DNA of 61,075 bases, filler included, from Diploschistes diacapsis (taxonomy: Eukaryota): assembly GCA_023645945.1 (NCBI GenBank). It is 10 parts of 10 records of this genome, joined end to end, with 100 filler letters (N's around TTAATTAATTAA, not from the genome) between each part and the next. Parts side by side here need not be neighbours in the genome. Positions count along the whole stretch, not along the records: positions 30,256 to 34,036 come from JALAIB010001853.1; 9 more parts are not named here. One strand, given 5' to 3'. Shown here piece by piece: positions 30,156 through 34,136 of the stretch; the stretch's first letter is position 1, and the number at the start of each line of letters is the position of its first letter. The notes under the pieces were generated by a model. It did no database searches, was not told where the DNA came from, and was given only the letters and a program-made list of their open reading frames with translations. The position numbers and the translations under genes were made by a program.

Positions 30156-30751
30156 NNNNNNNNNNNNNNNNNNNNNNNNNNNNNNNNNNNNNNNNNNNNT
30201 TAATTAATTAANNNNNNNNNNNNNNNNNNNNNNNNNNNNNNNNNNNNNNNNNNNNGGGGAGGGGACAGTCGGATGCGAAATGACGCGAGAGTAGGAGTGC
30301 GTCCGGAGAAAACTATTGGTACAGTTTCAAGCGAAGGCTCGAAAAGCCGGTGTCCATCGAGTGCACCCTGTAGATTGCGCGATGTTCAGGAGGCCACATG
30401 GAGAAAGCGGCAGTTGGCAAAATCGACGATAGTGAGGTGTAGGAGGAGGCGGTAAAGAAGCGAGTTGAAACGGAAGCGCTGGGAAGTCGAAGAGGGAAAG
30501 CAAAGCGGTCGGCCTTTTTGGTGGGCAGCCTTTTGCGTTGATTAGTCACATACGCAAGATAATGCTGGGCAGATGGGTCTCACCGACCTCATGAGTCGCG
30601 GTATGGCGCCGCCATCCGCCGGAATTCGATGGCAGAGGCAATGACGCCGAGAGAAAATAATATGATTGCAAGCGGGCTGATAGTTGCTTGAAAGGTACTG
30701 GCAATCACGGCGACTGCCATCATGCTCTTGACAGATGGGTTACTCGAGGGA

Positions 30752-30847
30752 TTACCGTGGTTTCGGTGGAGGTTTTGGCTTCGGTACGCCTGTGGTGTCG
30801 TATGAGCCTCGAGCCATATTGGTATACATGTCTTCCCTGGTTATCAT
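30752..30847 (-). CDS. Candidate micropeptide/uORF MITREDMYTNMARGSYDTTGVPKPKPPPKPR* (21 aa from the best-context AUG at 30817)
   Basis: Three in-frame ATGs just after a canonical intron (30863-30997, GTGAGT..GCTGAT..CAG); another intron downstream (30530-30583). Confidence 0.55.
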   Translation of the reverse strand: MITREDMYTNMARGSYDTTGVPKPKPPPKPR

Positions 30848-32990
30848 GGAAGCGGCTTGAGCCTGAGGAGGTGCAAATCAGCGCGGTGTCTTGTGGGAAG
30901 AAGGAAAAAACAACAAGATGACACGGGACCGGCCCCGGTCTTATAACTTGGGGCAAAGCCCAGATCCAGGCGTATAAAATGATCAAGCTTGACTCACAGG
31001 TAAGACTAAAATAGGCTGTGCTCCGGGGTGCTGGCACCAAGGCCCCACGAGTTGAGGGCTGAAGTAGAGGTGGCACCCGATATGCAGGTCAGAGAGACGT
31101 GCGAGCTTTCAGCAGAACAAAGCTGTTAGAATTTGCGGCTCTGGATAAGATTTGATTGTTCTAAATCGGAACCAGCGATGCGGTCATACAAGGTAGCGTT
31201 GGTTGTTTCCGGGAATGTTGAAGCGCAGATAGACGTTTCCAAGCGTGCAGCGGTCAGTTCGTGACAGGCCACCTCTCTCCGGACGCCTGCCAGGTCTGAC
31301 CCTCCGCGTGGACCTTTTCTCTCGAGTCGTTCTAGGCAAATGACAGCGATTACTCTATCGAGGAGGCAGCGCGTGCCTTAGTGTGGGAAGGCAGCAGTTG
31401 GGCAAGTAAACCGAGGGAGACCGGTGAGTGGTATTATATGCGCTAGCAGCAGGAAAAGAGCGGTGATACGTCTTCTGAATGTGAAAAACAACCTCTTCTG
31501 AAGAACTGACGGGGGCGTATCAAAAAAAGAAAACAGTAATGAAAGAACGTAGCAGCAGGGTATGGTTTTTGAAGGAGGGAAGAGCTACATAGCTAAACGG
31601 GGGGGGGGGTTTTGTGAGGGCGAAGGATGGATTTAAAGGGCAACAAGATGCCAGCACGCCCCCCTTAGCACAACCGAGACAGAAACACGACTACTAGATG
31701 GTATATTTGCAGAGTTTTACTTCATTCTATCCCTTGGGATTCGATCCATTTTGTCGGAACGAATGACGGAGCATGCGGATCTAGGGTGTCGGGTGCCTGG
31801 AAACAAGCCATTAATTGGTCTTGGTATTTGGCAAATTATTTTTTTCTTTCTTTTGAATTTTTCCTTCTTCTTATTCTTCTTCTTCTTCTTCTTCTTTTGA
31901 ATTTTGGTACAGGGTTCCGGGTATGGAGAAGTTTCCCATGTCCCAGCATGCAGTAGTGTTAGTGGAGCACAGTACTAGCAGTTAGCGGCAAAAAGCATCA
32001 TCGCTGGCATTCGGCCCTTCGGGTTCCTGAGTTTAAAGCCAGGCTTAAGATTAGGTTACATTAGGTGCCAATGCTACTACTACTAGTACTACTACTACCA
32101 CCTCTGCCTTAGGCACGGTTGGGTTAAGGTACTGCAAGGTTTAATTACGAGCGTTTTCCGAGCGTTGGAGTGGGAAAAGACAAGAGAAAAAACTCTTCGA
32201 GTCCCAAAGAGGCAAAAGCAGCAGAGCATGAAGTGAGCGGCGGCACAAAAGGAGTCAGTCGATGGAATGGGGGGGTGCGCCCTGTGCTGACGGTCGGGCC
32301 AGTTTTGCACAGCCTAACGAGTTATGAGCTATTACATAATATGATATAAATTAAATGCCTCTTCAACTTTTCGATATGACATGACGATATGACGCAGACC
32401 GACAGACAGACAGACAGACGCAGACCACCGGAAGGGAACAGTTCTTTTTTGTTTCCGCCTTCTTTGCTCCCACGCGTGTGACAAGGATGAGGAGTGGTTG
32501 GGGTGGCAAGGAAAATCGATCACGGCCTCGCGTGGCGCGCTGGGTGACGATGGTGTGCTGGAGCTGGCCATGTTCTGCATGTGATTGATGTGGATGTGCT
32601 TCGCCTTTGGCCACGCTAGCACCTGTCATTGTTGCTTGCGCAGCTAGGAAGTGGGCGGCGCTCCTTGTGCCACGTTCTTCAAGCCGTGAGGAAAGCGAAA
32701 TGAGGGCGGAATGAGGACGATAACAGTTTGTCAGGATAGAAGTACTATACGACGACGTTGTTGCACGTGCACGTACGAAAACCCAAACGGGCCGAATGTG
32801 AGAGGGCCAGGCAGCAATTTTTGATTTTGAATTTTAGTCACTCTGGCGAATGGGAGTCGAGCATGGCCTAGTAAAAGTCAAAAGGCGGCCTTTTCGGAGC
32901 AATAATTCATGGACACGGTGATGTGCCAGCAGGCTGTGGTGCGGCTTAGGATTCACTGGGTAGCATTTAAATTGGGTGCAGGTTGTATTC

Positions 32991-33041
32991 GGGTGATGTT
33001 TGGGTGATGTTTTGGGTGGTGTTTGGGTGGTGTTTGGGTGG
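32991..33041 (+). repeat. 11-mer minisatellite (GGGTGRTGTTT), about 4.5 units
   Basis: gggtgatgttt gggtgatgtttt gggtggtgttt gggtggtgttt gggtgg. Confidence 0.9.
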
Positions 33042-34136
33042 CGTCTGCGTGGGGTTTTTTCTCGTGTGTAAATGCAAATGAAGTTGCCTTGTCAGCATGA
33101 TTCTTTGGCGTTGTTGTTTCATGCTTGCTTGCTTGCGTGCGTGCGTGCGGGCCTGGAATGCCTTGTCGCTTGTACCCTGCTCATCTGTCCGCTTACTATG
33201 ATACAGTTACAAGAATACTCCCGTAGTCCCCATGCACACTCAGATGCTCTCTCTTCGAGATGTGATTGCGCCTGGTTGCAAGAGTTGAGATAGGCTCGCA
33301 TAAGTGAGTCATGGTACAGAGTTCATGTAAAATTTCCTTAGGGGCGGAAAAAGTTACTGGGCAGGGGCAGGTACAACTGCTTATATATATGACTGATCTT
33401 TGGCTCAACGGTAATTACCAAGTACCAATTACAACCATAGTTACGCATACAGCCCTCTGCTCTGTACAACGGATGAAAAAGTTTTCATCCAGCTTCCCAG
33501 TTTCCACGATTAAGGAGTAAGCAAGTAAGCCTTCGTCAAAAACGTCTGTACTGTTCTGTAAGCTCTACTCTGCCTTGCTTTGGTATTGATGAGTGATCGA
33601 GAAGGCAAGAAGCAGCAGCAGCAGCAGCAGCAGCAGTACCTATGATTTCATCCAGGTACTTGTCCAACGTTGAGACGAATTGTTTACCGAGTCAGCGTTT
33701 TCCAGCAGAAGCCGTTCCTGCAGCAGTTTGTGCACTAGCTGTCCCTTTCGGTAACAAATGACGATCCCTTGTTGATTTGATTGAGTCTGGGTACGTGTAC
33801 TGTGTACTGTTAGTCTGTTACACATCGTTTACACGTCCTCACTTCCCCGACGAAACGTGACAGGAAGGCCGAGGAGCAGCCAACGTCCGGACTACAGAGT
33901 AAGTGCAATAATTACAAGGCTTGGGTCGACGATCTCAATTGCTCCTTTCCCACGAGGCGGCGGGGATTCTCCCACGTTGATCTGTTATTTCATAGTAGGA
34001 CCCTGTTTTTCGCTCTAGCGTCCCGGGGGGAGGGGGNNNNNNNNNNNNNNNNNNNNNNNNNNNNNNNNNNNNNNNNNNNNTTAATTAATTAANNNNNNNN
34101 NNNNNNNNNNNNNNNNNNNNNNNNNNNNNNNNNNNN

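Follow-up and report, generated by a model that had tools for sequence, protein, structure and literature searches.

Can an open reading frame of only 31 codons be a gene, and if it is, does it stand alone or serve the gene that follows it? The question is raised by a short open reading frame (sORF) at 30847..30752, on the minus strand of a 61,075-nucleotide stretch of DNA from Diploschistes diacapsis, hereafter the window. The window (1-61075) consists of ten separate contigs joined via N/TTAATTAATTAA linkers, the first of 26,271 bp and the nine others of ~3.75-3.78 kb in descending order; neighbouring contigs are therefore uninformative about one another, and our subject is the contig that bears the sORF (30256-34036, 3,781 bp). 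Comparison with related loci and with predicted proteins shows the sORF to be a real protein-coding unit under purifying selection, with a family found throughout Pezizomycotina. That it is a stand-alone micropeptide gene, in tandem upstream of the gene for the small GTPase Rab5/Ypt51, is a reading to which we give about an even chance.

The sORF was proposed by a sequence-only reading of the window, and it lies where that reading placed it: the minus strand encodes MITREDMYTNMARGSYDTTGVPKPKPPPKPR, closed by TAA, with in-frame ATGs at 30847, 30829 and 30817. The contexts of these ATGs are gcttccATGa (weak), gaagacATGt and accaatATGg (strong), respectively, and the Pro/Lys tail of the peptide holds a PPP at 30772..30764. 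An open reading frame of this size is uninformative when taken alone. Frames of 31 codons commonly arise by chance, and a multi-intron transcript without a long open reading frame resembles the host genes of small nucleolar RNAs (snoRNAs), so that the locus could be read as a chance frame or as a conserved non-coding element, such as an intronic snoRNA or another RNA or DNA motif.

The evidence on this point comes from DNA. A scan of metagenomes yielded four loci, of which two (L001 and L002) are usable relatives, and the DNA-level comparison is made among three sequences (the window, L001 and L002), by counts of synonymous and non-synonymous changes. In blastn searches with the whole contig, the sole match to L002 is 30750-30820 (79% over 71 nt), which runs from the third ATG through the stop, and the sole match to L001 is 30768-30802; tblastx agrees, and no other stretch of the contig is common with either locus. 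L001 and L002 themselves have DNA in common only in the sORF island and in the Rab5 exons. Over 21 codons the window and L002 differ at 14 nucleotides, 12 of them third positions, which amounts to 11 synonymous and 2 non-synonymous codon changes. The figures are 15 of 17 between L002 and L001 over 19 codons (13 synonymous, 2 non-synonymous), and 11 of 15 between the window and L001 (9 and 3). The start and the stop of the minus frame are present in all three, and the differences in length are whole codons: the L002 peptide, MILRDIDNMNMGRGAYDTTGVPKPKPPPKPR, has 31 codons as in the window, whereas that of L001, MTTTSSSSSSTPCDMGRGGYDTTGVPKPKPPAK, has a tail 2 codons shorter and a longer linker. 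Frame, start and stop are thus conserved in distant relatives, with an excess of synonymous third-position change, and Rfam gives no match in the sORF region at E<=1. Because the sORF is the sole shared stretch, varies at third positions and recurs in 91 predicted proteins at E<1e-3, it goes beyond chance, and we find a non-coding or chance origin scarcely credible.

The same DNA is also open on the plus strand, where the window has a 41-codon frame with an ATG and where the reverse complement of the Pro/Lys tail encodes a Gly/Phe run. The coding strand could thus be that of a small Gly/Phe-rich protein, MGYSRDYRGFGGGFGFGTPVVSY.... A search with the plus-frame product found two predicted proteins, and a profile built from these two brought in 183 predicted-protein clusters at E<=1e-3, including 42 that reach E<=1e-10. 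The close relative X2 also speaks for the plus strand. X2 and X3 are relatives of the window contig in two further sequencing runs, with aligned pieces mostly 90-99% identical, and X2 differs in the tail by K24N (30773) and by a synonymous change (30767); in the plus frame both of these changes in the Gly run are synonymous. It should be kept in mind that two antisense frames have third positions in common, so that both appear conserved when one is.

Which of the two frames is selected can be told from how they vary. Of 150 plus-frame proteins listed, 100 were fetched, and all 100 have only a core in common, [YH][RLF]GFGGG..G[TV]PVVSYAP[RL]P[MI]..SLVI[MI], which occurs at any position in proteins of 42-283 residues with unrelated flanks. 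The residue that lies over the minus-strand ATG is M in 74 and I in 26, never L or V. The variable residue in AP[R/L]P is R in 76 and L in 24, a radical swap in the plus frame, but in the minus frame it is a switch between the Arg codons CGN and AGR, with Arg kept in 12/12 listed core variants (116/117 proteins). At the left edge of the core, YR, HR, YL and YF (45, 21, 13 and 11 proteins) read on the minus strand as Arg, Arg, Arg and Lys right before the stop. The plus frame has no usable start in the related loci, L001 having a stop 8 codons before the core and no ATG, and L002 no ATG within the 47 codons preceding it. Its counts of synonymous and non-synonymous changes (11/5 for the window and L002, 11/4 for L002 and L001, 8/4 for the window and L001) exceed the minus frame in non-synonymous change in 3/3 comparisons, and the edges of conservation match the minus-strand ATG and stop. 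The antisense frame at 30735..30860 was rejected as a gene for its lack of a start in L001 and L002, its unrelated flanks and the radical variation of R/L and R/L/F, and we give a plus-strand protein next to no chance. By comparison, selection acts on the minus frame, which keeps its start and stop, shows the lower number of non-synonymous changes and turns the R/L swap into an Arg codon switch; the plus-frame proteins present the picture of spurious calls over a conserved element.

In the sense frame, the first search used the unaltered 41-residue stop-to-stop translation as its query and returned a 33-aa Logan protein and a 59-aa 'hypothetical protein' of Coniochaeta ligniaria that ends ...KMITRESQACLNMGRGAYDTTGVPKPPPKPKRR. 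The window peptide (31 aa) was aligned with those of L002 (31 aa), L001 (33 aa), P0151 and P0152, and a profile of five minus-frame peptides gave 131 matches among longer proteins, 91 of them at E<1e-3. The carriers include Sordariomycetes (Neurospora, Podospora, Colletotrichum, Cytospora, Diaporthe, Pyricularia), Dothideomycetes (Bipolaris, Cercospora, Cladosporium, Aureobasidium), Eurotiomycetes (Aspergillus, Penicillium, Coccidioides, Histoplasma, Microsporum, Thermomyces) and Leotiomycetes (Hymenoscyphus, Oculimacula). Conservation of the peptide in related genomes, on the strand first proposed, is therefore present where its absence would have counted against the proposal.

We analysed 122 sense-frame proteins. 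Sixty-nine stop 6-15 residues past YDTTG, 27 begin with the motif and then continue, 21 carry it internally, 3 are cut at the motif and 2 are without it. Of the 117 proteins that bear the motif, 100 match RGAYDTTG exactly. Among the 69 proteins that end at the tail, the tail has a modal length of 11 residues, it contains PPP or a longer run in 52, only PP in 13 and neither in 4, and the terminal residue is K or R in 65. An in-frame M stands upstream of the position of the third ATG in 65/69, in 57 of those 65 at 10-12 codons, with N-termini such as MILRE, MITRE and MILRD. At the position of the third ATG itself M is found in 58/69 and another residue in 11 (F in Neurospora and Podospora, Q in Cytospora and Diaporthe), so the series of three starts of rising strength holds for the window but is no feature of the family. 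When the motif was masked, the 122 proteins fell into 65 singletons and small clusters, mostly of 2-4 proteins resembling close relatives. The flanks are unrelated and the conserved unit is therefore the ~31-codon sORF itself. The alignment shows a family pattern of MI[TL]R[ED]-x5-N-M-GRGAYDTTG[VT]PKP, followed by a 6-10-residue Pro/Lys tail ending in K/R and a stop, in which the ancestral start, on comparative grounds, is the first ATG (MITRE...).

The resemblance of the peptide's start to ascomycete predictions, suggested in the first reading, holds: MGRGAYDTTG does occur in many mis-built 'hypothetical proteins'. Public databases contain at least 183 antisense clusters and 91 sense proteins of this kind (E<1e-3), whose sole real content is the 31-codon unit, and the database 'proteins' on both strands are, by this comparison, a systematic annotation artefact of the sORF.

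We turn to the transcript that would carry the sORF. All three intron-like stretches noticed in the first reading have their donor, branch and AG signals (31189->31106, 30997->30863 and 30583->30530), and the one directly upstream of the sORF is conserved in position in 3/3 loci as a candidate intron. Its counterparts measure 121 nt in L002 and 101 nt in L001, each with a GTGAGTC donor and a CTAAC branch; the candidate intron ends 15 nt (window), 32 nt (L002) or 5 nt (L001) before the first ATG, with a YAG acceptor in every case. Downstream, L002 has a 53-nt candidate intron 135 nt past the stop, and L001 has none at the place matching 30530..30583. The sole ATG in the 700 nt upstream of the window copy sits in the donor of candidate intron 1. 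For L001 the count is 0 over 300 nt and 2 over 700 nt (P=0.014); L002 has four ATGs, three of them within the candidate intron and one interrupted by its donor. In silico splicing leaves no AUG ahead of the first ATG over 334 nt (window), 379 nt (L002) or the nearest 290 nt (L001); scanning of the predicted spliced leader would meet this ATG first. The leader had also been described as pyrimidine-rich, which proved weak (C+T 0.56 over 31400->30848, against 0.54 for the minus strand of the whole contig).

From these signals, the sORF would be the first AUG-initiated frame of its own spliced transcript, and in silico it is also the only conserved one. An intron in the untranslated 5' leader (5'-UTR) would end a few to ~30 nt before the start, the leader would be free of AUG, and the sequence after the stop would be rich in AUG and not conserved. 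An AUG-free leader, then a conserved frame, then AUG-rich sequence without conservation is an order that favours a stand-alone gene over a classical upstream open reading frame (uORF).

The next gene matters here, as the sORF had been suspected of controlling a main frame lost beyond the contig end. In both L001 and L002 a Rab5/Ypt51 gene follows on the same strand, with exons encoding MAD..SSVKLVLLGEAAVGK / SLVLRFVNNDFQENKEPTIG / AAFLTQK...WDTAGQERF...CAC, and among solved structures it is closest to yeast Ypt51 (1e-47) and human Rab5A. A third context is P0215 from Chaetothyriales sp., a merged gene model of 1,246 residues that joins MMTSTTLETASDMGRGAYDTTGVPKPPPPPPK directly to Rab5 from exon 2 onward. 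Within P0215 the parts follow one another as sORF, Rab5 (lacking exon 1), EI24-type membrane protein and ribosomal protein uL15, which gives the local gene order in that species. With Rab5 sequences 81% identical, L001 and P0215 probably come from close relatives. The sORF thus precedes Rab5 in 3/3 visible contexts; the window contig ends 496 nt past the stop, and Rab5 is found nowhere else in the window.

This arrangement lends itself to another explanation, in which the sORF is a conserved-peptide uORF (CPuORF) of the Rab5/Ypt51 mRNA, or the first frame of a 5'-extended isoform of it, and the nascent peptide in the exit tunnel, together with a pause at polyproline or at termination, sets how many ribosomes or transcripts reach Rab5. 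The peptide-level conservation that defines CPuORFs is present, the Rab5 gene lies downstream on the same strand at 1245 nt in L001, at 1390 nt in L002 and in the merged P0215, and nothing else is conserved between the L001 and L002 loci. PPP or a longer run in 52/69 tails, a basic last residue in 65/69, and invariant residues 10-20 codons before the stop, the zone in which arrest peptides, among them the arginine attenuator peptide (AAP) of fungi, make their tunnel contacts, would suit such an arrest, and some family members are in-frame fusions with transcription factors, whose genes frequently carry uORFs. However, the spacer carries 23 ATGs in L001 and 24 in L002, about the number expected by chance and unlike AUG-depleted leaders, and Rab5 would be very badly served by a leader 1.2-1.4 kb long that contains two dozen AUGs. 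Pyrimidine-rich stretches, which are typical of fungal core promoters and start sites, can be read upstream of the Rab5 ATG in both L001 and L002 and suggest that Rab5 has its own start site. Past YDTTG the tail can be anything from 6 to 15 aa long, a termination-coupled arrest is hard to reconcile with the internal and tandem motif copies in larger proteins, and the linkage to Rab5 is seen in three genomes only, two of them probably of one order. The suspected main frame thus has a counterpart in Rab5, but the AUG-rich spacer disfavours a classical uORF. We regard a CPuORF or a 5'-extended isoform as unlikely on balance and prefer a stand-alone gene, a preference that we hold with roughly even confidence.

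The stop of the sORF could also be bypassed, if a splice donor inside or just before it made the sORF the first coding exon of a longer protein. The 27 of 122 predicted proteins that begin with the motif and continue are of this form, three models from Onygenales have a common conserved downstream segment, and the stop lies in a donor-like CGGTAATC in the window and in L002. Yet 69 of the 122 models end at the tail, the stop context in L001 is AAATGATCT, without GT, nothing downstream is conserved among the window, L001 and L002, and the continuing models are unrelated except within close taxa. We consider a bypassed stop very unlikely.

Several points weigh against a stand-alone gene that acts through its peptide. 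The transcription, the introns and the translation of the sORF are all deduced from DNA, and the same-strand tandem with Rab5 in all three visible contexts fits a cis-regulatory role as well. The window copy departs from the consensus at two residues flanking the core (MARGS, as against MGRGA), and in X2 both K24N and Y7H fall at positions variable in the family, so that tail and linker are loosely constrained. No fold or known motif was identified for the peptide in Pfam, in a PDB profile search (0 matches at E<=10 with the family profile) or in the ESM Atlas, where the peptide met only unnamed clusters of 31-43 aa at 0.89-0.90, a lead only. The larger proteins that carry the motif, to which we come now, could in part be gene models that merge an upstream sORF with the next gene, as P0215 demonstrably is.

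An 18-residue module, (G)RGAYDTTGxPKPKPPPK, also occurs in otherwise unrelated larger fungal proteins. It is found at the N-terminus of a family of ~200-residue Lys/Glu-rich proteins (family A; 7 carriers, with P0259 an eighth cluster member without the motif), inside three PigL_N/SesA-type proteins (two with a sub-threshold N-terminal PigL_N domain, one also with SesA), and in leading position in three transcription-factor-like proteins, two of homeobox-C2H2 and one of bZIP type. P0153 from Annulohypoxylon nitens has three copies in tandem, P0165 and P0179 two each. Family A (P0179, P0235, P0242, P0245, P0254, P0260 and P0264) comprises unnamed proteins of ~160-255 residues in which an N-terminal GRGAYDTTGVPKPKPPPK module is followed by a conserved PKQTQWEEMNRRQR...EEQRRLRWD segment; it has no Pfam match, and P0235 gave no usable match in the ESM Atlas.

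If the stand-alone reading is right, the micropeptide may act as a peptide and in trans, a weaker step of the argument. In this view the invariant GRGAYDTTG would combine with the proline-rich basic tail into a short linear motif for binding, an idea that arises because the 18-residue module is also N-terminal, internal or tandem in unrelated proteins. Should those models hold, the motif would work at the level of protein, as a short linear motif, and the free micropeptide could bind the partner of the larger proteins or vie with them for it. A possible role for the PPP in sensing eIF5A or polyamines sits beside this; PPP is present in the window and in 52/69 tails, 17/69 tails are without it, and the invariant part is not a proline run. 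A bolder idea, which we hold to be distinctly doubtful, makes GRGAYDTTGxPKP and its tail a portable regulatory module of 18 residues in filamentous ascomycetes, serving as micropeptide, as uORF and, in transcription factors and proteins of cell-death type, as a tag at the N-terminus or inside the chain, which would couple the Rab5 locus and other genes to one shared sensor (e.g., elongation/eIF5A status or a conserved partner).

Several known systems invite comparison. The fungal AAP, encoded by the uORF of arg-2/CPA1, is likewise short (~24 codons) and conserved as a peptide across Ascomycota, and its critical residues lie mid-peptide and are proposed to act inside the ribosome, to which the sORF may be compared by analogy. 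The AAP, however, is always close to one main frame in whose leader it lies, whereas the next gene of the sORF is 1.2-1.4 kb off, across AUG-rich sequence that is not conserved; the two sequences are unrelated, and the sORF motif also occurs inside other proteins. PPP is a site at which ribosomes pause in an eIF5A-dependent manner, and the uORF of HOL1, the uCC of AZIN1 and the MAGDIS uORF of AdoMetDC are short frames with a proline-rich C-terminal end, as is the sORF. These polyamine and eIF5A uORFs differ from it in that no polyamine or eIF5A gene lies near the sORF, some of its tails do without PPP, and its invariant part is GRGAYDTTG. The AAP is mentioned in passages of PMC5640933, and AZIN1 and polyamine uORFs in passages of PMC5640933 and PMC5487733.

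Drosophila tarsal-less/polished rice encodes 11-aa peptides with a shared heptapeptide, in several copies per transcript. Very short frames, a near-invariant motif and possible tandem copies (three in P0153, two in P0165) are common to both, and the tarsal-less/polished rice frame was once taken for non-coding RNA. It belongs to another kingdom and has another sequence, and the sORF is single-copy per locus in the window, L001 and L002. Some plant CPuORFs are fused to the main frame in some lineages, and the fusions of the motif to transcription factors are similar. The homology groups of plant CPuORFs (PMC2075485) are defined like the present family by conservation of the peptide of a small frame, but they require a place in the leader of a conserved main frame, and for the sORF such a place is at most a possibility, with Rab5 downstream in three contexts and at 1245-1390 nt in L001 and L002. 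By eye, the basic tail of the P-x-P-P-P-K-P type and the neighbourhood of an endocytic Rab also resemble proline-rich SH3 ligands of endocytic proteins, e.g., the Ark1/Prk1 peptide bound by the SH3 domain of Abp1; the order of residues in the sORF tail varies between species.

To our knowledge, few conserved sORFs have been characterised in filamentous fungi. In the literature searched, which did not extend to supplements, no description of the peptide strings was found, nor was a uORF linked to Rab5/Vps21 in filamentous fungi; the only listed paper that names a uORF, PMC11912909, on reporters of nonsense-mediated decay, does not deal with filamentous fungi. Passages of PMC3326321, PMC5640933 and PMC5487733, supplements aside, do not mention the sORF. 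The family therefore appears undescribed.

The nine-residue core is near-invariant across named species from four Pezizomycotina classes, model organisms (Neurospora, Aspergillus, Penicillium) and pathogens of plants and humans among them, and the sORF therefore almost certainly does something. It is directly testable in tractable species. A functional link to Rab5, if there is one, would offer a new point of control over endosomal traffic, and if the motif were a binding module, it would define a new pair of peptide and partner.

Table 1. Coordinates of the features of the sORF-bearing contig, counted along the window
Feature	Position	Strand	Description
sORF, long form	30752..30847	minus	31 codons + TAA (30754-30752); MITREDMYTNMARGSYDTTGVPKPKPPPKPR*; read from sequence
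Most conserved part of the sORF	30752..30817	minus	Third ATG to stop, 21 codons, MARGSYDTTGVPKPKPPPKPR*; family core GRGAYDTTG[VT]PKP
Pro/Lys tail PKPKPPPKPR	30755..30784	minus	Length and order differ across the family
Candidate upstream intron 1	31106..31189	minus	84 nt, GTATGA...TCTAACA...AAAG; motif only
Candidate 5'-UTR intron 2	30863..30997	minus	135 nt, GTGAGTC...GCTGATT...CAG; ends 15 nt before first ATG
Candidate short intron 3	30530..30583	minus	54 nt, GTGAGA..CTAAT..AG, 168 nt past stop; motif only
AUG-depleted leader	30848..31547	minus	1 ATG in 700 nt, 8.4 expected, Poisson P=0.002
Sequence past the stop	30256..30751	minus	Not conserved; probable 3' UTR or intergenic, to contig end
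44-codon frame MMAVAV..., hydrophobic stretch	30723..30589	minus	MMAVAVIASTFQATISPLAIILFSLGVIASAIEFRRMAAPYRDS*; follows the sORF
Antisense Gly/Phe-rich frame	30735..30860	plus	MGYSRDYRGFGGGFGFGTPVVSYEPRAILVYMSSLVIMEAA*, 41 codons with ATG; by-product of the sORF

Past the stop, the window has 7 ATGs in 496 nt, roughly the chance number (estimated at one per ~64 nt), and shows no similarity to L001 or L002. The 44-codon frame listed in Table 1 was rejected as a gene: in X2 it is without its first ATG (30722) and is shifted by a 1-nt deletion at 30661, and neither L001 nor L002 shows a match to it; it is probably a chance frame. An origin of the sORF from a repeat or a transposon was likewise set aside, the motif being single-copy in the window, L001 and L002.

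The two other loci of the metagenome scan add little. L003 looks unrelated. L004, a 1.6-kb contig, has SYETTGVPKPKP at 1249-1314 in the frame of the micropeptide, with a stop just before and no start; this copy could be decayed, a chance match, or one with an unrecognised intron. Profile scans of genome contigs and of viral contigs gave 6 pattern matches each, none of them confirmed.

The contig was first described as lacking any convincing gene. None of 12 scanned frames (the longest and both frames at the sORF included) reached the Pfam cut-off, in a family test made with Pfam only, large protein databases not being queried with those frames. The only Rfam match on the contig is sub-threshold, at 33253-33336 (19.7 bits, as against 70).

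The best DNA match of the sORF contig is in a lichen metagenome run. Simple repeats are found at 31857-31906 (CTT), 32064-32109 (TAC), 32390-32427 (GACA) and 33611-33637 (CAG), together with a tandem GGTGATGTTTGGGT-like unit at 32985-33040. X3, a relative from a rock metagenome, skips 70 nt (32371-32442) and 112 nt (33041-33154), at or beside two of the simple repeats. The contig is terminated at both ends by G-rich runs.

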